From NCBI GenBank assembly GCA_964639295.1, contig CAZXDT010000002.1:2609-66608 (forward strand): 64,000 nt of DNA. The letters are read 5' to 3'. Position numbers and translations under genes: made by a program. This stretch comes from an uncultured Candidatus Saccharibacteria bacterium. GTDB taxonomy: Bacteria; Patescibacteriota; Saccharimonadia; Saccharimonadales; JALRHH01. Numbering within the stretch: the first letter of the stretch is position 1; each line of letters starts with the position of its first letter. Positions 9,795 through 37,629 of this stretch are shown piece after piece. Below the pieces are notes generated by a model. The model saw only the letters and a program-made list of their open reading frames with translations. It did no database searches and was not told the DNA's origin.

Positions 9795-9814
9795 GATACA
9801 CCCTTCTCCGGACA

Positions 9815-9845
9815 GCAAAACACCCCGGCTATAAAACCGGGGTGT
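9815..9845 (-). terminator. Stem-loop terminator after the 65-aa gene
   Basis: A 9-bp GC-rich stem (acaccccgg / ccggggtgt) is followed on the minus strand by TTTTG. Confidence 0.6.
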
Positions 9846-9871
9846 ACTCGCAAATTTGTTCCGAAGAACTA

Positions 9872-10069
9872 CTAGCCGCGCTTAACAGTCAAGAAACCGT
9901 TACGTGGGTTTTCGTTTACAACGAAGCCTGCAGGAAGGTCAGTTGCCTCTGGGCGGTCGTCCTTGCTGAAGTAGTAAATCCTCTGCTCTTTGCCACCGCG
10001 CAATACGACGAGCTTTGAGTTAAGGTGATATGTTACGCCTTTTGAGTTCTGGTGTGTGTATCCAGCCAT
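9872..10069 (-). CDS. Small hypothetical protein (65 aa)
   Basis: GAGGGAG lies 6 nt upstream of ATG 10069 (MAGYTHQNSKGVTYHLNSK...). A stem-loop follows at 9820-9845. Confidence 0.6.
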   Translation of the reverse strand: MAGYTHQNSKGVTYHLNSKLVVLRGGKEQRIYYFSKDDRPEATDLPAGFVVNENPRNGFLTVKRG

Positions 10070-10338
10070 TATAAGGTCTCCCTCTCTTACATTAACTAAT
10101 GGTACTCCTAACATACTCTTGGGTGTTTTAGCTTGTCAACAGGTTTACGCACAAATAACTTCTTAGGATACAAAATGACCCCTGTTAAATTCCAAAGTAA
10201 AAAATGTTTTTATAAACAACGTTCGAAGGGGCAAAACAGGTCTTGACGGATTCTTCCACAGTTAAAATCTCAACAGTGGTTGCGTAACACACCGCTTATG
10301 CATTACACTACCGTTACATAACGAAAGGTGGATTTTAC

Positions 10339-10992
10339 ATGGAATGGATGAATCGTGGCCAAGGCCAAGGTCAACCAGCAGGACAGCCACAAGGAGCTAG
10401 TCCAGCGCCCGCAGGTCATACTGCAAAAAGAAGTCAAGGTGTAGCTGCATTACGCGGTTTGCGCTTTGCACAAGTAGCCTTACTATTTTTGGTTACTATC
10501 TTAGTTGTTGCAACGGTGAGTTACATTGCTGTCGGCGGCCCTAAGAAAGCAGAATCAAGCTTTGTAGACAGTAAGAAGCTGCAGGCAGTCTTCCTCAACG
10601 GTGGACAGGTATACTTCGGTAACATTACCGACCTTAACGGTAAGTTCCTCAGTATGAACAACATCTACTACTTGCGCGTTAACCAGCAGGTACAACCAAA
10701 CCAGAGCAATAGCTCTACTAATGCTAACGACATTTCACTCGTGAAGCTTGGTTGTGAATTGCACGGTCCTCAGGACAGCATGGTTATCAACCGTGAGCAG
10801 ATCATCTTCTGGGAAAACCTAAAGGATGACGGTCAAGTTGCTAAGGCAGTTGCTGAGTACAAGAAGGCTAACCCAGGTGATCAGAAATGTGACACCACAA
10901 GTCAGTCTACTGGTACAAACAACACTGATACTAGTACTACAAACAACTCAACCACGACAAATAACAATACTTCTACCACCAAGAAGCCATAA
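10339..10992 (+). CDS. Membrane-anchored hypothetical protein (Gln/Gly-rich N-terminus, Thr/Asn-rich C-terminus)
   Basis: GAAAGGTGG lies upstream of the ATG. The product has a single TM helix (ALLFLVTILVVATVSYIAV). A strong terminator follows at 11013-11038. Confidence 0.7.
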   Translation: MEWMNRGQGQGQPAGQPQGASPAPAGHTAKRSQGVAALRGLRFAQVALLFLVTILVVATVSYIAVGGPKKAESSFVDSKKLQAVFLNGGQVYFGNITDLNGKFLSMNNIYYLRVNQQVQPNQSNSSTNANDISLVKLGCELHGPQDSMVINREQIIFWENLKDDGQVAKAVAEYKKANPGDQKCDTTSQSTGTNNTDTSTTNNSTTTNNNTSTTKKP

Positions 10993-11063: not shown

Positions 11064-11120
11064 ACCACACCAGACAGTGGGTTGCGAGCTCCGCTCGTAA
11101 GTAGGATGGTTGGTGTGGTG
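11064..11120 (+). repeat. Module-2-only copy (D) of the structured element
   Basis: A perfect 10-bp outer stem (caccacacca / tggtgtggtg) encloses gggttgcgagctccgctcgtaag, which is homologous to module 2 of copies A and B. Confidence 0.7.
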
Positions 11121-14313: not shown

Positions 14314-14340
14314 TTCACAAGTCGACAGCTAACAGATAGT

Positions 14341-14431
14341 GCTTGTATTTAATAAATATAAGCGGCGTTGCTCATAATTTAGGAGTAAACTCCTAATTCT
14401 TCCGCTACTTGCTTATGGTATATTTAAAGTA
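14341..14431 (+). promoter_or_regulatory. Promoter/leader module upstream of the histidine kinase gene (copy 1)
   Basis: An AT-rich hairpin (gcttgtat...ataagc) is followed by block 1 (aagcggcgttgctcataatttagg, containing a CATAAT -10-like hexamer) and block 2 (aattcttccgctacttgcttatggta). Both blocks recur upstream of gene 18281-18958. Confidence 0.6.
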
Positions 14432-15853
14432 ATGAAACTACTCCGAGTGGGGAGCTTAAAACCCGTATTCAAGCCAAAAAAGTACACGACATTTGTCGCA
14501 CTACTTATCATTGTTGCGGGGGTGGCCAGTGCCCTTTTTGCAGCCGTAACCAGTCACTTGCAGCAACGAGAATACCTTGTGGGTCGCGCTCAGACTATTT
14601 CTGACACGCTGCCAATAAATGATATCTACAAGCTAAAAGGCAACCAGACGGATCTTTCCCGTCCCGAATATGCCAAAGTCAAACAGGCGTTGCAGCAGGT
14701 GAGTAATAGTAACACCGACATATCCCGTATCCACTTATTCATTATTAGAGACAGTAAGGTTGAGGTTGCAGCAGATTCTAAGACTCCAGATAGCCCTGGG
14801 TATGTGTCACCAGGAGTAACTTTTAGCGATGCCAGCGAGGCGCTCCGGACCGCATTCAAGACTGATACGCCGCATTATGACAACTTAGTATCTGACTATG
14901 CAGGACGCTGGATCGCGGCTTATACGCCTGTGTACGACGTTCAGAGCAACAAGACAGTGGCAGTGGTTGGAGTGTTCAAGGATGCACGCACATATTACCT
15001 AGAGATACTCCTATATGCCCTAGTACCGTTACTACTTGCCGCGATTCCCTTGGCAGGCATATTACGTGATATTAAAATTCAGGCAAAAGAGCACGAAATT
15101 ATGCAGCTTAAGAATCAGTTTGTATCTATTGCCTCACACGAACTGCGTTCCCCACTTGCCGGTATGCTCTGGGGTATACACACGCTCGGACAAGAAGCCG
15201 ACAAGAAACTATCACCCAAACAACATGACCTGTTAAATGACATGTATCGCAGTACTGAATCTTCACTGACCACTGTGAATGAGATTCTTGATCTGTCTAT
15301 TTTTGAACGTGGGCAAGAACACAATTTACAGCACGACTTACTAGATCTACACAGCGTCATGAAACAGGTTGTTGCCACCCTCAAACTCGGAGCCCAAGAG
15401 AAACACATAACAATCCACTTTGGACATGATTGGCCCAAGCAGGCTTTCGCAACCGGAGACCTAGGTGCGGTAAAGCGAGCCATGATGAACATCGTGTCAA
15501 ACGCCATTAAGTACAGCCCAGAAAAGACGACCATAGCGGTTAACTATCGCAATGCGAATGGCGAGCACATTGTAAGTGTTAAGGATGAAGGTATTGGTAT
15601 CCCCAGTGGTGAGCAAGAAAAGGTTCTAGAAGGATATTACAGGGCAAGTAATGCTTCCGTTATACAAGCCCACGGTACGGGCCTGGGGCTTTGGGTTTCT
15701 AAGAAAATCGTAGAGGAAAATGGTGGCCGTTTATGGCTTAACTCCAAAGTTGGACATGGTACGACTATCTATATCGCGATGTCTGTTTCGAACCCTACTG
15801 GCCCGCTGCTTCAAGGATCTGCTGCGTCAAAGCAGTCGGGTCAAGATTCTTAG
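14432..15853 (+). CDS. Sensor histidine kinase (two TM helices, extracytoplasmic sensor domain, HisKA + HATPase_c)
   Basis: The H-box is SIASHELRSPL and the G-box is GTGLGLWVSKKIVEENGG. Confidence 0.92.
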   Translation: MKLLRVGSLKPVFKPKKYTTFVALLIIVAGVASALFAAVTSHLQQREYLVGRAQTISDTLPINDIYKLKGNQTDLSRPEYAKVKQALQQVSNSNTDISRIHLFIIRDSKVEVAADSKTPDSPGYVSPGVTFSDASEALRTAFKTDTPHYDNLVSDYAGRWIAAYTPVYDVQSNKTVAVVGVFKDARTYYLEILLYALVPLLLAAIPLAGILRDIKIQAKEHEIMQLKNQFVSIASHELRSPLAGMLWGIHTLGQEADKKLSPKQHDLLNDMYRSTESSLTTVNEILDLSIFERGQEHNLQHDLLDLHSVMKQVVATLKLGAQEKHITIHFGHDWPKQAFATGDLGAVKRAMMNIVSNAIKYSPEKTTIAVNYRNANGEHIVSVKDEGIGIPSGEQEKVLEGYYRASNASVIQAHGTGLGLWVSKKIVEENGGRLWLNSKVGHGTTIYIAMSVSNPTGPLLQGSAASKQSGQDS

Positions 15854-16163
15854 CAAGATACACTGTTACACCAGCCTGAAGCGCGTGGTTGACTGAGTCA
15901 TTGGTCTCGTCATTAGTAAGCATCACGATAGGTACATGCTTGCCCCAATCGTCTGCACGGATGGCGTCAACCATCTCGAGACCCGTCATATTTGGCATGC
16001 GTACGTCAGACACTACAAGGTCGGGGTGTTGCTCTAGAGCAACGCTCAGACCTTCTTTGCCATCAACTGCCTCGATTACGGTTTGGCCAGCGTTTTTAAG
16101 GAGAGCTGTTAAGCCCTCACGAATTAGTTTGTCGTCATCAACGACTAGAATAGTTTTGCTCAT
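15795..16163 (-). CDS. Response regulator, receiver domain only (CheY-like)
   Basis: MSKTILVVDDD, DLVVSDVRMP and a conserved Lys region are present. There is no output domain in the 122-aa product. I chose the start at ATG 16163. Confidence 0.88.
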   Translation of the reverse strand: MSKTILVVDDDKLIREGLTALLKNAGQTVIEAVDGKEGLSVALEQHPDLVVSDVRMPNMTGLEMVDAIRADDWGKHVPIVMLTNDETNDSVNHALQAGVTVYLAKNLDPTALTQQILEAAGQ

Positions 16164-16201
16164 AGCCTTAATGATACGGGGTGATCCTCTAGCGAGCAAG
16201 A

Positions 16202-16783
16202 TTATCCTGGAATAATCTCGCCTTTTTCGGTCACTGTAACCGCGCCTTGCCTCAAAACCTCGACTGCATCGTCTACTACCCGAATAACAGTTGAAGGCTT
16301 ATGGCCAGATAAATCACCTCCGTCAACATAAAAATCTACCTCACTACCAAAATATGCCTCTGCAGCTACAAGATTAACTGCCGGCTCCTGCCCTGTGTGA
16401 TTGGCGCTACTCGTTAAGAGCGGTCCTGTTTTTTCAAGTAGCTTCAGGAGATCAGGATGGTCCGGAATTCTACAAGCGAGTGATTGTTTGCCAAGATGGA
16501 GCTCCTCATGTTGTATACCAAGAGGTATGACGACACTGATTGGGTTTGGCCAGAATTGCTCCACAGCAGTCATATAGCGACGTGGGATTCCCAACTCAAC
16601 GAATTGGCCTATGTTAGCAGCGATTACCGTACCTGGCTTGTGGTGACGATGTTTAATATTGTACAAGCGAGCAACAGCTATTGGGTCACTTGCGCTAGCA
16701 ACCACGCCATATATTGTGTCTGTGGGTAACACACCGACTTTCCCATCATTTAGATATGATGCAATAGTATCGATGCTTAACAT
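16202..16783 (-). CDS. tsaC: L-threonylcarbamoyladenylate synthase (TsaC/YrdC family)
   Basis: GVLPTDTIYGVVA and SANHTGQEP motifs are present. I chose the start at MLSIDTIASYL (16783). Confidence 0.88.
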   Translation of the reverse strand: MLSIDTIASYLNDGKVGVLPTDTIYGVVASASDPIAVARLYNIKHRHHKPGTVIAANIGQFVELGIPRRYMTAVEQFWPNPISVVIPLGIQHEELHLGKQSLACRIPDHPDLLKLLEKTGPLLTSSANHTGQEPAVNLVAAEAYFGSEVDFYVDGGDLSGHKPSTVIRVVDDAVEVLRQGAVTVTEKGEIIPG

Positions 16784-16839
16784 GTTAAGTATTACTGACA
16801 CTTTTATTAGTTTCCTCTTATGGTTTATACTATAGCTAT

Positions 16840-18280: not shown

Positions 18281-18958
18281 TTAGTTGCTCCCCGTTGTCG
18301 CATTAGTTTCAGCAAGGCTGGCGCGAATCTTCTTGAGCGTAGGCTTAATTGTATCGTTCACGTATGTCTTAATCGCTATCCCATCATCGTGCACTTTCTT
18401 GAGCCCACTACGTGCGTCTTCAAGTGAAGCCTTAAAGCCTGTGGGGTCAGCAACACAATCCATACCAGCAACATCGCTCACCGCCTGTTTGTAAGTAGCG
18501 AGGTCTGTTTTGAAGGTAGCTATCTTGGTCTGTAGCTCAGCGATTTCTGTCTTCAATTCCGTTGTGTTGGCACCCTTTTGATCGAGTTTTTCCTGAAGTT
18601 TTGTTAATCGATCAACGAGGTTGCCATATACCTGGGTACGGCTCGTCTCAATACCTGTTATTCTGCCCTGCAAGCTACTCACAAGTCCTTGTGCATTCTT
18701 ACATCGGGTCTGGAGACGCTTTTCTTGAACAGCTGTTAACTTAATTTTCAGTGCGTCTTTGCGCTTTTGCAAACGAGCGTTCAGCTCCGTTTTCTGAGCT
18801 TCTGTGGTTTTAGTTGTAGTGGGCGTGGTTGTTTGTTCGGTCTGAGTAGTTGTGTCCGATGGTGCGTCACCCACAGAGTCAACTGCTAGCACCGGCGTTA
18901 CAACAAACAGCGGCGTCAGTATGCTGGCGCTCAATATCATTTTTATACGAGATTTCAT
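18281..18958 (-). CDS. Secreted coiled-coil protein, hypothetical
   Basis: AAGGAG lies upstream of the ATG. The signal-peptide-like N-terminus is MKSRIKMILSASILTPLFVVTPVLA, followed by heptad-like Lys/Glu/Leu-rich sequence. Confidence 0.7.
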   Translation of the reverse strand: MKSRIKMILSASILTPLFVVTPVLAVDSVGDAPSDTTTQTEQTTTPTTTKTTEAQKTELNARLQKRKDALKIKLTAVQEKRLQTRCKNAQGLVSSLQGRITGIETSRTQVYGNLVDRLTKLQEKLDQKGANTTELKTEIAELQTKIATFKTDLATYKQAVSDVAGMDCVADPTGFKASLEDARSGLKKVHDDGIAIKTYVNDTIKPTLKKIRASLAETNATTGSN

Positions 18959-18980: not shown

Positions 18981-19068
18981 TTAAGTACATTTTACCATAA
19001 GCAAGTAACGGAGTAATTTGAAAATATATTTCCAAATTATGAGTAACGCCGCTTGTATTTTTATAAGC
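18981..19068 (-). promoter_or_regulatory. Promoter/leader module upstream of the secreted coiled-coil protein gene (copy 2)
   Basis: The minus strand reads gcttataaaaatacaagcggcgttactcataatttgg...aattactccgttacttgcttatggta. Order, orientation and spacing match the copy at 14341-14431. Confidence 0.6.
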
Positions 19069-23338: not shown

Positions 23339-23355
23339 ACTCCAGACCTGCTTTA

Positions 23356-23518
23356 GGCCGTTGTACTTGAGTGTCAGGTGCAATTTCTCTTCGAGAAACG
23401 GACCGAGCCGTACATGTGGTACGGTGAAGGGAGTATCGCAGAAGAAAATTGTGCCTGGCACCAAGAAGTCAGCGGGTCGTGAGCTCCGCTCATGAGCAGG
23501 CTGACTGGTACAGTGGCC
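23356..23518 (+). repeat. Bipartite structured element, copy A (module 1 at 23381-23451, module 2 at 23468-23505, 11-bp closing stem with two G-U pairs)
   Basis: ggccgttgtac (23356-23366) pairs with gtacagtggcc (23508-23518). The interior is homologous to copy B, with compensatory changes in three stems. Confidence 0.8.
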
Positions 23519-26678: not shown

Positions 26679-28216
26679 GTAACTTCTACGTCTTCACCGA
26701 AGTGTTTTTCTAGGCGTTTTTTAATGCTGCCGGGGTGGCGACCAAACTCTTTGGTTAACATGTTAAGTGTTTTCTTATCTTCAAACATTTTCTTAAGCTT
26801 AGCGTCATCTTCGTCTTTCCAGGGCATATAGGCATTGGGGTATTCTTCACGCATTTTTGCTAGCTTTTCAGACCAGTTACTGGCGGGCTTTTCGTCGTCC
26901 TCTTCTGGTTCTGGTTCGTTTTTGCGTTTTTCTTCCGACGCCAGCCAAGTTGCAATGTGGTCGGAATGTTCTTGAAGCGCCTTTTCACTACGACTACGAA
27001 GCTCTGTGTCGATTTCGCGGGCAAGTGGGCTTGTCTTCAGCGCCATGCCATTGAGCCCATCAAGCGCAAGTTGGTTCATGCTCTTAACACGAGACAACGC
27101 AACATAACCCATGCCTTCTACGAATGCCCGACGAAGATCGATATGTGCACCATCCAAAGTCATTCCTTGACTCTTATGCACCGTAATAGCCCAGGCTAGG
27201 CGCAGTGGTAGTTGCTTGAGTGTAGCGCGTCGTTTGTCACCATCTATAAGCTCCCAGGTATCAGGCAGCATTGTAATGGTTTTACCGTTATTTAGTTTAA
27301 GGATTGGGTGTTCGTCCTCGTCAAAGCCAGTCACAATTCCGAGTGTGCCGTTGGCGTATCTGCCGTTCTGGCTGTTCTTGATACACATAACGTGGGCACC
27401 CTTTTTCAATTGCAAAACTTCTGGCGCTAGACACGAACGAGTCAGTTGCTCGATAAATTTCTTACCACCGGTTGTTTCCATTTCGTATTCGTATGTGTCA
27501 CCGTCTAGACGATCAAGTTCCGCATCGTTGATACGATCAACATCTGCATTGGTTGTCAGTAATCGGGTGCGGGCAACAAACGGGTCTAAAGTTACATCAA
27601 TACGATTTTGCAGTGTGGTTAATTGGTTGCGGGTTAAGACCCCAGCACGGATACCATTAAGTATCTGTGCATAGGCATCGTCATCACTCTGACGATACTG
27701 TTTTTCAAGATAACAAACGGTGAAGTTACCCGATTGCCATGTGTCGGATGACAGTACAAAACTTCCAGCGCGTGATTCATGTCGGTTAACGGGGGGCAAC
27801 TGGAAGAAATCACCAACCAGCACAACCTGAAGCCCGCCGAATGGCTTGTCATTGCCACGAACTGTACGTGCTACTTCCTCGACCATGTCCAGACGGTAGT
27901 CGTGCAACATGCTAATTTCATCAATGATTAAGATGTCCGCTTTGGCGATCAAACCCTGTCGTTGTTTGCCTACTTTTTGGAAAAAGCGATCTGGCAACGT
28001 ATCATGTACGCCGATCCCTGCCCAAGCGTGGATGGTTGTGCCGTTCAAATGAGTAGCAGCAAGCCCGGTAGTAGCAGTAACGGCAATGCTTTTGCGTCGC
28101 TTCTTGGCACGACGAATAAACTCATTAATGAGATAGGTTTTACCGGTTCCGGCCGCTCCGGTTAACAGAACAGACTGCCCTGATTCCAAAATTGCCAATG
28201 CTTCTTGCTGTGTCAT
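26672..28216 (-). CDS. ATP-dependent DNA helicase, Pif1/RecD-like (SF1B) with ~120-aa charged C-terminal extension
   Basis: Walker A LLTGAAGTGKTYLI, Walker B ILIIDEISML, and the motifs VLVGDFFQLPPV and ITVHKSQGMTLD are present. Confidence 0.88.
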   Translation of the reverse strand: MTQQEALAILESGQSVLLTGAAGTGKTYLINEFIRRAKKRRKSIAVTATTGLAATHLNGTTIHAWAGIGVHDTLPDRFFQKVGKQRQGLIAKADILIIDEISMLHDYRLDMVEEVARTVRGNDKPFGGLQVVLVGDFFQLPPVNRHESRAGSFVLSSDTWQSGNFTVCYLEKQYRQSDDDAYAQILNGIRAGVLTRNQLTTLQNRIDVTLDPFVARTRLLTTNADVDRINDAELDRLDGDTYEYEMETTGGKKFIEQLTRSCLAPEVLQLKKGAHVMCIKNSQNGRYANGTLGIVTGFDEDEHPILKLNNGKTITMLPDTWELIDGDKRRATLKQLPLRLAWAITVHKSQGMTLDGAHIDLRRAFVEGMGYVALSRVKSMNQLALDGLNGMALKTSPLAREIDTELRSRSEKALQEHSDHIATWLASEEKRKNEPEPEEDDEKPASNWSEKLAKMREEYPNAYMPWKDEDDAKLKKMFEDKKTLNMLTKEFGRHPGSIKKRLEKHFGEDVEVTK

Positions 28217-28895: not shown

Positions 28896-30655
28896 GCTTC
28901 TTCCACTGTTGTTTGGATACTGAGTTCAGTGAGCTGATTGTCTTCGACGAGGCTTGGGGAGGACATCATGACGTCTACACCGGAGCCATTTTTAGGGAAG
29001 GCGACGATTTCACGAATGTTTTCTTCGTTCATGAGCACCATAAACATACGGTCTAGGCCAAAGGCACAGCCGGCGTGTGGTGGAGCACCATATTTGAAAG
29101 CATTAATCATAGCGCCAAAGCGACTCTCTACGTATTCTTTGTCGTAATCGAGTGCACCAAAGACTGCATAAAGTACGTCTGGATTGTGGTTACGTACACC
29201 GCCAGAACAGATTTCATAGCCGTTCATAACCATGTCGTATTGATCAGCAAGAATACTTAACTTATCTTCAGTATTAAGTGCCTCAAGCCCGCCTTTTGGC
29301 ATGCTGAATGGGTTGTGACCAAAGTCTGGCTTGCCGGTCTTTTCGTCCTGTTCGTAGAATGGGAAGTCAACAACCCAGGCAAGGGCAATAAGGTCAGGGT
29401 CCTTGAGGTCAAAATGCGTAGCAAACTCGTTGCGCAGGCGTCCAAGGACTTTGTTCACGGTCGTCTTTTTATCTGCACCAAAGAACACAGTATCGCCGTC
29501 TTCTGCACCAGTTTTAGTCTTGATAGCATCAAGTTCTTCGGCAGTCATAAACTTAGCAATTGGTGATTTAACCTCACCGTTCTCCCAGGAAATATATGCC
29601 AATCCGCCAGCACCCTCTTGTTTTGCGATCTCTGTAAAGGAATCAATTTGCGAACGGCTCAATGAGGTACCGTTTTTTACGCAGATAGCTTTCACTGCTC
29701 CGCCGGCTGCAATTGGGTTCTTAAACACGCCAAACTCGCTGCCTTTAAGTTCTTCCGATAGATCAACCAACTCCATACCAAATCGGAGATCGGGTTTGTC
29801 GGTGCCAAATCGGTCCATTGATTCTTGGTATGGGATACGTGGGATGTCTTCTGAAAGTAACTTTTTGCCCGCAAAGTCAGTCACCAGGTTCTTGATAAGT
29901 GGGTCCATCGTGCTGCGAACTTCTTCGCCGTCTTCTACGAATGCCATTTCGAGGTCCAGTTGGTAGAACTCGCCGTACAAACGGTCAGCGCGGGGATCTT
30001 CATCACGGAAACACGCTGCAATCTGGTAGTAACGCGGTACGCCACCAACCATCAACAGTTGCTTGAACTGCTGTGGTGCCTGAGGCAATGCGTAAAATTT
30101 ACCCGGGTGTACACGTGATGGAATCAAGAAGTCACGGGCTCCTTCAGGACTACTGTTGGCCAAAATTGGTGTTGCTACCTCTGTAAATTCAAGATTTTCC
30201 ATGTAGGCACGCATAACTTTGTAGTAGTCAGCGCGTTTTTTGAGCATAGTTTGCATCTTTTCACGACGCAGGTCCAAGAAGCGGTATTTAAGGCGCAACT
30301 CTTCACTCGATTGGTTCTCGCTGTGAATTTGAATTGGCAAAGTCTCTGCCCTGTTTAAAATACTTAACGTGTTAAGTATTACTTCAATTCCACCTGTTGG
30401 GATATTAGGGTTCTTTAACCCTTCGCCTCTTTCTACTACCGAACCTGTTGCTGATATCACAAACTCGTCACGCAACTGCTCTGCTATCACAAATGCCTCA
30501 GCATTATCTGGACGAATAGTAAGCTGGACAAGGCCTGTATGGTCACGAAGGTCAATAAAAATAAGCCCGCCGTGGTCACGACGTGACTGGACCCAGCCTT
30601 TAAGCTCGACCTTTTCACCAACTTTGTTGGCAGAATCAATAGCCAATGTTCTCAT
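28892..30655 (-). CDS. aspS: Aspartate--tRNA ligase
   Basis: The OB-fold N-terminus (FIDLRDHTGLVQL), class II motifs (ACFRDEDPRADR, GLDRMFMVL) and the 587-aa length fit AspRS. Confidence 0.95.
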   Translation of the reverse strand: MRTLAIDSANKVGEKVELKGWVQSRRDHGGLIFIDLRDHTGLVQLTIRPDNAEAFVIAEQLRDEFVISATGSVVERGEGLKNPNIPTGGIEVILNTLSILNRAETLPIQIHSENQSSEELRLKYRFLDLRREKMQTMLKKRADYYKVMRAYMENLEFTEVATPILANSSPEGARDFLIPSRVHPGKFYALPQAPQQFKQLLMVGGVPRYYQIAACFRDEDPRADRLYGEFYQLDLEMAFVEDGEEVRSTMDPLIKNLVTDFAGKKLLSEDIPRIPYQESMDRFGTDKPDLRFGMELVDLSEELKGSEFGVFKNPIAAGGAVKAICVKNGTSLSRSQIDSFTEIAKQEGAGGLAYISWENGEVKSPIAKFMTAEELDAIKTKTGAEDGDTVFFGADKKTTVNKVLGRLRNEFATHFDLKDPDLIALAWVVDFPFYEQDEKTGKPDFGHNPFSMPKGGLEALNTEDKLSILADQYDMVMNGYEICSGGVRNHNPDVLYAVFGALDYDKEYVESRFGAMINAFKYGAPPHAGCAFGLDRMFMVLMNEENIREIVAFPKNGSGVDVMMSSPSLVEDNQLTELSIQTTVEEA

Positions 30656-32492: not shown

Positions 32493-32662
32493 CTAATCGT
32501 TTCGCACTTAAGCTCCAGATTCAATTTCTCCTTGAGAAACGGACCGAGCCGTACCTAAGTACGGTGAAGGGAGTATCGGAGAGGAAAATTGGATATGGAG
32601 CCAAGAGGCCAGCGGGTCGCGAGCTCCGCTCGTGAGCAGGCTGGCTGGTGCGAAACGATTAG
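32493..32662 (+). repeat. Bipartite structured element, copy B (module 1 at 32522-32591, module 2 at 32608-32645, perfect 15-bp closing stem)
   Basis: ctaatcgtttcgcac (32493-32507) is the exact reverse complement of gtgcgaaacgattag (32648-32662). The interior aligns base-for-base with 23381-23510 at roughly 85% identity by eye. Confidence 0.8.
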
Positions 32663-35909: not shown

Positions 35910-37382
35910 CTACTTGGTTTTCTTCAGGTTTTCTTTTTTACAATTCATGCACTTGGTTCTGACTTCTTTATCATTGAATACGTAGACGAGGCCCTTTGTA
36001 TCGCACTCCGGGCAACTACGTTTAACGTCTTTGAGTACTTTATCGCCTTCTTTGCCGCCGAGTTCCTTGATTAATGCTGCAGCTGCTTTGTCTTCTACAC
36101 TCTCGAGCCCACAGACACCACCAGTACAGCCACCACCAAGCTCTACGTTTTCTTTCACAATTGACTGCTCAAGCTGCCGTGTAAGTACATCATCATTGGC
36201 GTACCCAGAAGAACTGCCCGTGCTGTCATTCTGTATCGTCTTCACCAACGCAGCATCAACTTGCTCAATAACATGTTCGTTACCTGTCTTGATAGCAGCC
36301 TTAGTGGCAATAATATTTCGTTTGGCCTTCTCTGCAATGGCGGCAAGTTCCCTGGTCATGAAGAGGCCGTCTTCCGTCACGTGGTTACTCACAAATTCAC
36401 GTACATCTTTTGCCCACAGAGGTGTCACATTATCGATAAACTGATATACCGCCGGTGTTGCTAGCCCGTTTTGCAAACTACGTGCCAGCTCAAGTTCAAA
36501 GTCATACCATTCACTGCCATACTGTTTTGCTTGCTGATTATAGAGCTCTTGATCACTACGGAATTTCTCAAGCTGCAAAAGTACGTTCAGGCGATGTGCG
36601 TCATCCTGGATATATGGCACGACCGCTTCCACGAGTGTTACCGGACCTTCAGCAGCAAGGTCACTTGATAATTCCAGCTCTTTAAATGTCTCCATTACAG
36701 AAAGTGCTGAGACCTGATCATCTACTGTAATTGAGCTGCCGAATATATTATTTTCGTCGGCGAGCATCGTCACCCACGCTTCAAGCGGGACATCCGTTAT
36801 AAGTAACGATTCCATGACGCGGTATGTTTCGTTCCCCGCACTATCAGTAACAATGTATGAGGCACGTATGGAGTCCTGATCGTGCAAATGCTCGGCCTTG
36901 GCAATATATGCTGGTGCATCATGTTCTGACATGCGTGGAGAAAGGAAGAACTGTACCTTACCAGCTTTGAGTGTTTCCTGAGCATGTGCTGCCTCTGCAA
37001 CCTCCACGTCAACACGCTGGATGGCCGCGTCAGAAGAATGGAAATCATAGCCGCTTTTCGCAACTCCTACCGCACACCTGCCAAGCCATCTAAATGTCCG
37101 GTGAGACCTCTGCGCTTCAGCATCCCATACCGTCTCTACCTTATGTGCTGTTCTCGTAACCGCAAAGGGCATTGACACCTCTGCAAGTGCGGTCTCAAGA
37201 TTAGTGGTAACGTCGGCCTTAACCGCTTCGGAAACAGTTCCGGACGATTCGGATGCACTGAGCAAGTGATCTACTTCTGTGAGCAACCTATTGATATCTT
37301 GCTCAAATAGGATTTCCGGTCCTGATTCAGTCATGCCTACTTGCTCGGTAGGATCATGTAATACTTCTTGTAGTATGCTCAT
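35910..37382 (-). CDS. Hypothetical 490-aa protein with C-terminal zinc ribbon
   Basis: The ORF is long and uninterrupted. The C-terminus is CPECDTKG...CMNCKK (CxxC...CxxC). I recognise no other motif. It starts 10 nt upstream of the nadD-like gene. Confidence 0.7.
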   Translation of the reverse strand: MSILQEVLHDPTEQVGMTESGPEILFEQDINRLLTEVDHLLSASESSGTVSEAVKADVTTNLETALAEVSMPFAVTRTAHKVETVWDAEAQRSHRTFRWLGRCAVGVAKSGYDFHSSDAAIQRVDVEVAEAAHAQETLKAGKVQFFLSPRMSEHDAPAYIAKAEHLHDQDSIRASYIVTDSAGNETYRVMESLLITDVPLEAWVTMLADENNIFGSSITVDDQVSALSVMETFKELELSSDLAAEGPVTLVEAVVPYIQDDAHRLNVLLQLEKFRSDQELYNQQAKQYGSEWYDFELELARSLQNGLATPAVYQFIDNVTPLWAKDVREFVSNHVTEDGLFMTRELAAIAEKAKRNIIATKAAIKTGNEHVIEQVDAALVKTIQNDSTGSSSGYANDDVLTRQLEQSIVKENVELGGGCTGGVCGLESVEDKAAAALIKELGGKEGDKVLKDVKRSCPECDTKGLVYVFNDKEVRTKCMNCKKENLKKTK

Positions 37383-37428: not shown

Positions 37429-37629
37429 TGTAGAAACATACACACGCACTCTTGCTCGAGAGATTTTACAGCTGTATCGGACTTCTGGTTACCCAGTTTA
37501 CCGTTGCGGCACAGTACAGGATTTTCACCTGTTTCCAGCATTGTTTTGTTAACTGTTCGTAGTGTATCACGTGCACGGCACGCTAGCTGTAGTAGTATAC
37601 GCTACATTTAGTACGCTAGAGGTAGCGGA

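Follow-up and report, generated by a model that had tools for sequence, protein, structure and literature searches.

A module shared by two Saccharimonadales promoters is probably a low-copy palindromic insertion beside generic extended -10 elements

Why should a sensor kinase gene and a gene for a coiled-coil-like protein, 4.6 kb apart and on opposite strands, share a long stretch of similarly built upstream DNA? The question arises in a 64-kb stretch of contig CAZXDT010000002.1 from an uncultured Candidatus Saccharibacteria bacterium (order Saccharimonadales), hereafter the window, where a module of two conserved blocks around a hairpin precedes a histidine kinase gene (14341-14434, + strand) and a gene for a 225-amino-acid (aa) protein (19069-18985, - strand). 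A previous interpretation, the sequence-only reading, took the module for a promoter and leader that would tie the two genes into one regulon. Our analysis points to a composite of two unrelated things: probably a low-copy palindromic insertion, similar to miniature inverted-repeat transposable elements (MITEs) and REPINs, beside generic extended -10 promoters, with a kinase messenger RNA (mRNA) that would lack a leader.

The shared module and its two copies

The module is real and recurs far beyond chance. Block 1 (AAGCGGCGTTRCTCATAATTT) lies at 14360-14380 (+) and 19054-19034 (-), and block 2 (AATTMYTCCGYTACTTGCTTATGGTA) at 14395-14420 (+) and 19018-18993 (-), where the copies agree at 23 of 26 positions. 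The blocks stand 14 or 15 nt apart, depending on the copy. Each is found at these two places and nowhere else in the 64 kb, a pair of matches was seen in none of 100 shuffles, and global alignment of the two inserts described below gave z = 9.25 relative to shuffled sequences. The segments between the blocks differ in sequence, yet both form a hairpin (TTAGGAG-TAAA-CTCCTAA and AATTTGGAAA-TATA-TTTTCAAATT), and the stability of these central hairpins exceeds that of shuffles (p<0.001 and p=0.002). The sequence-only reading thus described the DNA faithfully: the common order and near-equal spacing upstream of both genes, the degree of identity in block 2, and a nonrandom module that overlaps the promoter were all borne out when we reread the window. 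The open reading frames (ORFs) of five codons that it pointed out, the TAATG in which the first of them overlaps the kinase start, and a kinase ATG with no Shine-Dalgarno sequence are each literally present. It is the interpretation of these features that changes when orthologous loci are compared.

Promoters, insertions and a predicted leaderless kinase mRNA

We compared the two loci with their counterparts in relatives, which are referred to by L numbers and whose kinase homologs are named Candidatus Saccharimonadales by their sources. The comparison resolves the two upstream regions into the following features.

14341..14346 (+): left flanking direct repeat GCTTGT, the original -16 region of the kinase promoter; uninterrupted in the empty alleles of L033 and L005
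14347..14410 (+): inserted 64-nt imperfect palindrome, kinase copy; absent at the orthologous site in six relatives, present in L003/L004
14411..14416 (+): right flanking direct repeat GCTTAT, which restores the -16 region beside the -10 box, as judged from filled versus empty sites
14415..14432 (+): "mini-ORF" ATGGTATATTTAAAGTAA, a by-product of promoter sequence; upstream of the predicted transcription start, not conserved, no Shine-Dalgarno sequence
14416..14424 (+): extended -10 element TGG-TATATT of the kinase gene; same distance to the ATG in all orthologs
14432..15853 (+): histidine kinase gene (Pfam HisKA and HATPase_c, conserved N-terminus), predicted leaderless, with its start at or next to A14432
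19063..19068 (-): left flanking direct repeat GCTTAT, from the empty allele of L003
19003..19062 (-): inserted 60-nt imperfect palindrome, coiled-coil copy; absent in L003, L005, L007/L008, L010, and L011
18997..19002 (-): right flanking direct repeat GCTTAT, from the window and the filled/empty comparison
18989..18997 (-): extended -10 element TGG-TAAAAT of the coiled-coil gene; same element in insert-free orthologs
18281..18958 (-): gene for the 225-aa protein, with weak coiled-coil-type Pfam matches and an N-terminus that looks like a signal peptide when judged by eye rather than by a predictor

Both filled sites therefore read GCTTRT, 64 or 60 nt, GCTTAT, and a -10 hexamer. The kinase insert runs from an AT-rich left end through block 1 and the central hairpin (14379-14396) to the first 16 nt of block 2; the coiled-coil insert is made up of block 1, its central hairpin (19038-19015), and likewise the first 16 nt of block 2. 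The remaining 10 nt of block 2 (GCTTATGGTA) are the -16/-10 part (TRTGnTAnnnT) of an extended -10 promoter. Because orthologous kinase and coiled-coil genes carry this element without the module, we regard GCTTATGGTA as a generic promoter part. Across kinase orthologs the element reads TGGTATATT, TGCTATATT, TGCTATGAT, TGCTATAGT, or TGGTATAGT at a constant distance from the ATG. The insert-free kinase promoters of L033, L005, L006, L007, and L034 follow the pattern TAACAGATAG(Y)GCTTGTGGTATATT-N7/8-ATG, with TGCTATATT, TGCTATGAT, and TGCTATAGT as variants. The sequence TAACAGATAG stands directly upstream of the kinase promoter in all orthologs (e.g., L033 1110-1125) and at 14331-14340 in the window; in the window and L003, the insert shifts it about 70 nt further upstream.

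The presence of the insert varies among relatives at both loci. At the kinase gene the site is filled only in the window and in L003/L004, whose copies are 95% identical and fold as a long imperfect hairpin, and it is empty by sequence in L033, L005, L006, L007, L034, and L010. The empty allele, GCTTGT followed directly by GGTATATT, runs unbroken in L005 and in L033, a close relative with 88% kinase identity. Two more contigs, for which we used gene tables only, have gaps of 41 and 45 nt between the Mur ligase and kinase genes, too short to hold the insert. The coiled-coil site is filled in the window only; it is empty by sequence in five relatives (L003, L005, L007/L008, L010, and L011) and by length in one more. 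Insert-free coiled-coil orthologs carry TGCTAAAAT, TGGTAGAAT, TGATAGAAT, or TGATAAAAT, in the pattern GCTTATG(G/C/A)TA(A/G)AAT followed by a leader with the same Shine-Dalgarno sequence, AAGGAG. In L003/L004, the kinase copy is present and the coiled-coil promoter is unbroken (TTTTCGCTTAT joined to GCTAAAAT, as read in L003), and the two loci vary independently in whether they hold an insert. The coiled-coil promoter of L006 contains a possible remnant of the right half (TCCGTTAACTGCTTATGG, nhmmer E=0.026). Filled and empty alleles at orthologous positions, the pattern expected of a MITE-like insertion, are thus found at both sites.

These comparisons suggest the following course of events. 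The 3' end of the module (GCTTATGG plus TAnAnT) would be the extended -10 promoter of these Saccharimonadales, already in place at both genes, and an imperfect palindrome of 60 to 64 nt (AT-rich end, block 1, variable hairpin, and the 5' part of block 2) would have inserted between its -16 region and its -10 hexamer. The inserts would be flanked by a 6-bp direct repeat of their target (GCTTRT), with the right repeat re-creating TRTG next to the -10 box. A promoter so interrupted should survive, because TRTG is restored and the window promoters, when aligned on the -10 box, have no -35 consensus to lose. For the same reason we rejected the idea that the insert contributes a -35 element. The coiled-coil gene would be transcribed from TGGTAAAAT with a short leader, predicted at about 24 nt with its start near 18982, that contains AAGGAG (18975-18970), and the kinase gene from TGGTATATT as an mRNA that begins at the ATG. 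The two copies would then be paralogous members of one repeat, alike through common descent of the insert and a shared generic promoter rather than as a dedicated leader. That the inserts arose by transposition, and not by some other copying process, is our inference.

How, then, would the kinase be translated without a Shine-Dalgarno sequence? Its -10 box (TATATT, 14419-14424) ends 7 nt before the ATG at 14432. The N-terminus MKLLRVGxLKPVFKPK is conserved in 20 orthologs, and the start codon is therefore fixed. The same geometry is enriched in the window: 15 of the 61 genes have a TAnnnT box that ends 6 to 7 nt before the start, where about 4.4 would be expected (p=6e-5). Among the 61 window ORFs, 21 have such a box ending 5 to 10 nt upstream, 19 have a Shine-Dalgarno sequence, and a single one has both; about one-third of the genes have the box at 5 to 10 nt and no Shine-Dalgarno sequence, with a peak at 6 to 7 nt. 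The kinase gene thus shows the combination that marks leaderless genes: a -10 box 5 to 9 nt before a verified start, no Shine-Dalgarno sequence, and a geometry enriched in its surroundings. Given this enrichment, a leaderless mRNA, most likely starting at the ATG, is the better account of the missing signal. The sequence-only reading was correct that the signal is missing and, by this evidence, probably mistaken in taking its absence as a hint of reinitiation. At both genes we infer that transcription starts where the promoter sequences predict, and leaderless transcription appears to be common in this Saccharimonadales genome. Leaderless genes with -10-only or extended -10 promoters are described in Actinobacteria and Deinococcus-Thermus. 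The kinase gene resembles them in having TAnnnT 6 to 7 nt before the start, no Shine-Dalgarno sequence, no -35 consensus, and many genes alike around it; it differs in that its start is predicted from sequence alone. For Saccharibacteria and Patescibacteria, a literature search returned no relevant report on transcription starts, promoters, or leaderless genes.

The sequence-only reading offered another account, in which CATAAT is the -10 hexamer, the hairpin and mini-ORF form a transcribed leader, and the kinase is translated by termination-reinitiation. Upstream ORFs of this kind act by translational coupling at an overlapping TAATG, and the kinase locus resembles them in that the stop of a short ORF does overlap the start codon; there is also a weak match (9/12) to a promoter of the form TTAATA-18-CATAAT at 14349-14378. 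The resemblance ends there. The ATG of ATGGTA is the TRTG of the extended -10 element (TATGGTATATT, TATGGTAAAAT), so that the mini-ORF ATG at 14415 falls inside TATGG, in promoter consensus bases that lie upstream of the predicted transcription start, and no Shine-Dalgarno sequence precedes it. In orthologs the frame stops after 2 to 3 codons within the -10 box (TGA or TAG), and in some it opens with CTG, GTG, or TTG; conservation extends to neither the peptide nor the overlap of stop and start. The coiled-coil gene has a good Shine-Dalgarno sequence of its own, and its mini-ORF stops 22 nt short of the start codon. CATAAT becomes CATGAT in L003 and has no TG extension upstream, and leaderless geometry is frequent in the window. 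A genuine upstream ORF leader would be transcribed, with its own initiation signal and a conserved position; the kinase mini-ORF has neither of the latter two and is predicted to lie outside the transcript. We therefore give this account almost no credence.

Origin of the inserts and competing explanations

What kind of insertion could this be? Small palindromic intergenic repeats include MITEs, such as the Correia elements of Neisseria, and repetitive extragenic palindromic (REP) sequences and REPINs; the ends of Correia elements are reported to help form the -10 region. The inserts are like MITE and REP elements in being short, noncoding, imperfect hairpins with filled/empty polymorphism and a short target duplication, and like Correia elements in lying at or in a promoter with an end that helps form the -10 region. 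They differ in several respects: they are about 60 to 64 nt long, they have been seen in one or two copies rather than tens to hundreds, their extreme ends carry no clear terminal inverted repeats, they duplicate 5 to 6 bp rather than TA, and they reside in a reduced-genome Saccharimonadales host, with no partner transposase or REP-associated tyrosine transposase (RAYT) identified in the window. Membership in REP/REPIN proper is not borne out, with a low copy number in all DNA examined and no Y1-transposase match in the window; nor did Pfam reveal a cognate transposase or autonomous element among about 57 window ORFs.

Related genomes contain comparable inserts. In L011, a 67-nt insert lies in the kinase -10 region between TGCTA and TGGTA, and the site is empty in its closest relative, L034. 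In L010, a 69-nt insert lies in the -10 box of the MscS promoter between copies of TTATAC, in the opposite orientation to the promoter, and the site is empty in L033. Homology between the L010 and L011 inserts is clear (nhmmer E=1.9e-5, z=8.9). All four inserts measure 66 to 70 nt when one repeat copy is included and fold as long imperfect hairpins. Besides size and promoter position, the window type and the L010/L011 type share a layout of conserved block, variable hairpin, and conserved block, with short cores CGGCGT and TCCGT.AC. The four pairs of flanking repeats (GCTTGT/GCTTAT, GCTTAT/GCTTAT, TGCTA/TGGTA, and TTATAC/TTATAC) are consistent with target-site duplications of 5 to 6 bp, two of the four being imperfect by one base.

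Several other identities were considered and set aside by inspection or by search. Integron attC sites do not match, as the window copies have no RYYYAAC and the L011 arrangement GTTGTAC...GTACAAC runs in reverse order. For dif sites and for ends of the IS200/IS605 insertion sequence type, the motif order is wrong and the flanking targets vary. A promoter for an extracytoplasmic function (ECF) sigma factor (AAC-N16/17-CGT) fits L011 (TGAAAC-N16-CGTA), L010, and the L006 remnant; the window copies fail, having AGGAGT and GGAAAT at -35, in the variable hairpin arm. An invertible 4.6-kb segment bounded by the two inverted copies finds no relative with the inverted arrangement and no recombinase gene nearby. 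The module has no Rfam match at the gathering score, and a permissive E-value (up to 10) gave only two matches at noise level. A transfer RNA scan found none at the module, and a scan for intrinsic terminators did not flag the module hairpins.

Some of our results weigh against a mobile repeat. The homology between the window type and the L010/L011 type is not significant (z=0.5-2.1). The copy number is low, with two in the 64-kb window and one in the metagenome of L003: an exact two-block scan of 185,579 species genomes gave chance matches only, and of metagenome contigs only the L003 kinase copy, the window's own genome being in neither collection. No transposase or recombinase Pfam domain was found in the roughly 57 window ORFs scanned. 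The extreme ends of the inserts are not inverted repeats, and the conserved cores CGTTRCT are direct repeats; the outer hairpin pairing (e.g., ATAAGC...GCTTAT) uses the duplicated target and not the insert proper. Every one of the five known inserts sits at a promoter of a single gene cluster (kinase, receiver, MscS, and coiled-coil), a concentration that may stem from selection for a function and not from random transposition. Finally, the kinase copy differs between the window and L003 at only 5 of 91 positions, compared with 5 of 22 third positions in the adjacent 22 codons (p=0.023) and 266 of 451 third positions in the rest of the gene, and this suggests that the insert is under some constraint. 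Further searches were negative as well: about 190 kb of Saccharimonadales DNA yielded no additional copy to a loose two-core pattern or to nhmmer profiles built from either insert type, none lay in some 120 kb of flanking DNA from related genomes (the sampling being centered on the kinase/MscS/coiled-coil cluster), and the two-block scan of viral contigs gave one unrelated GC-rich match.

One rival reading is exaptation, in which a DNA-binding protein would use the insert in this lineage to co-regulate the kinase and coiled-coil genes. Candidate sites are the CGTTRCT direct repeats, about 38 nt apart, which flank the hairpin or a cruciform. The paralogous copies retain blocks 1 and 2 and diverge freely in the hairpin sequence, and the kinase copy keeps 95% identity between genomes in which silent sites approach saturation (41% identity at third positions of the kinase); its conservation beyond the neighboring codons and the confinement of every known insert to one conserved cluster also speak for a function. 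This is the part of the sequence-only reading that survives, and we consider it unlikely, if worth serious attention. Most relatives lack the module at both promoters, and L003 lacks it at the coiled-coil promoter, which leaves a conserved regulon without support; the L010 insert is turned against its adjacent promoter; the response regulator of the cluster has no DNA-binding domain; and the window holds no third site. Moreover, the identity with L003 lies in a patch that conflicts with the rest of the gene. Over the first 72 nt of the kinase gene the window is closest to L003 (0.89), and beyond them it is closer to L033 (0.77-0.82) than to L003 (0.72-0.75); such conflicting patterns argue for recombination rather than constraint alone, and the insert-bearing promoter and its 5' patch probably moved together between lineages. 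Other core promoter segments are 89 to 95% conserved between the window and L003.

Could the second copy instead have been made locally, by template switching or gene conversion that carried a promoter-upstream segment 4.6 kb away and was primed by GCTTATGG microhomology? There are only two copies, near each other, both junctions fall within the shared GCTTRT/GCTTATGG promoter sequence, and the metagenome containing L003 yielded no other copy. A recent copy, however, would be uniformly similar, and the window copies share about 90% of block positions with entirely different central hairpins and left ends. The hairpins are unrelated, whereas the L003 and window kinase copies agree at 95% over their whole length; the coiled-coil copy thus cannot be recently derived from the kinase copy, and a further, third source copy of the insert is implied. 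Other genomes also have comparable inserts, one of them inverted, at other promoters and with other flanking repeats, and we judge local copying quite improbable. Still less probable in our view is an RNA-level element of the upstream gene, such as a stabilizer in the 3' untranslated region or a weak terminator that keeps read-through out of the leaderless promoter downstream. The window and L011 inserts do follow directly after a codirectional gene (the Mur ligase gene and the HhH-GPD gene, with 8 nt to the stop codon of the latter), hairpin stability is significant, and G-U pairs favor the sense strand for the coiled-coil central hairpin and the kinase left hairpin. On the other hand, the coiled-coil left hairpin pairs better when read from the antisense strand, the hairpins lack a following U-tract, neither the terminator scan nor Rfam recognizes them, and the genes on either side of the L010 insert diverge, which leaves no transcript to terminate there.

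With these alternatives weighed, a low-copy palindromic insertion beside generic promoters remains the reading that we hold to be probable, and within it the insert may modulate expression today or have acquired a secondary regulatory role later. We also entertain, as a speculative and rather improbable extension, a family of palindromes of about 62 nt that targets extended -10 promoters of Saccharimonadales in their -16/-10 region, supplies one of its own ends to rebuild them, and has been recruited repeatedly at one envelope-related cluster, where purifying selection would maintain it and recombination would spread it as a portable cis-regulatory cassette.

Two further observations concern the window and L003. 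At 14439-14454, the filled alleles of the window and L003 share the coding sequence ACTCCGAGTGGGGAG, a CUCC/GGAG hairpin at codons 3 to 8 whose 4-nt arms recur in the central hairpin of the kinase insert (GGAG-TAAA-CTCC); the empty alleles of L033 and L010 have one codon fewer in this region. Common ancestry of the patch is the likely cause of the sharing. Elsewhere, about 1.1 kb of the window (9811-10906), comprising two ORFs without a Pfam match and their divergent promoter region, is 93 to 99% identical to L003 against a background mean of 73.5%, which recent exchange between lineages or extreme constraint would explain.

The gene cluster and other elements of the window

The cluster in which the inserts lie is syntenic in all relatives compared: Mur ligase, histidine kinase, a convergent receiver, (MazG), Sua5, divergent MscS, a small protein, the coiled-coil protein, and HhH-GPD. 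One more of its genes bears on regulation.

15795..16199 (-): stand-alone receiver response regulator of at most 134 aa, convergent with the kinase gene, with Response_reg as its sole Pfam match; same arrangement in relatives

With Response_reg as the whole of the receiver, the two-component system has no obvious way of acting on transcription. The regulon proposed by the sequence-only reading, linking this system to a surface protein, loses its footing here: the module is missing from both promoters in most relatives, the receiver has no DNA-binding domain, and no further copy turned up in the window or in public collections. The cluster has been rearranged in some close relatives, as seen from an Exo_endo_phos gene between the Mur ligase and kinase genes of L010 (4242-4964) and from the absence of Sua5 between the receiver and MscS in L010 and L033. 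A 14-bp perfect palindrome, CTTAACATGTTAAG, or a near copy of it occurs at 16773-16796, 26751-26774, and 30360-30383. The first of these lies in the divergent Sua5/MscS promoter region and is found at the same place in L003, L005, L010, L011, and L033; it is a better candidate operator for the cluster than the module.

Two other elements of the window deserve mention. An adenosylcobalamin (AdoCbl-II) riboswitch is recognized at 37465-37552 (-), with 38.9 bits against an Rfam gathering score of 36.5, upstream of an ORF (35910-37382) that has no Pfam match. A second repeat family of about 150 nt, with a conserved 3' core (CAGCGGGTCGCGAGCTCCGCTCGTGAGCAGGCTGGCTGGTG) and no Rfam match, occurs at 23365-23510, 32506-32650, and, in part, 11075-11115. 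The intergenic region 23339-23517 is wholly absent from L003 (176 of 179 alignment columns are gaps), and this family therefore also looks insertion-type.

For this organism, our analysis removes a false lead, in that it finds neither a kinase coupled to an upstream ORF nor a conserved regulon joining the two-component system to a surface protein, and it illustrates how a repeat that lands beside a generic promoter can mimic a dedicated regulatory leader. The leaderless look of about one-third of the window genes, with their -10-only promoters, would be useful for calling gene starts and designing promoters in a group that is hard to study. Very compact genomes seem able to tolerate small palindromic insertions inside promoters when the TG by the -10 box is restored. 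If the inserts alter expression, a sensor kinase would have naturally occurring promoter variants in its filled and empty alleles.

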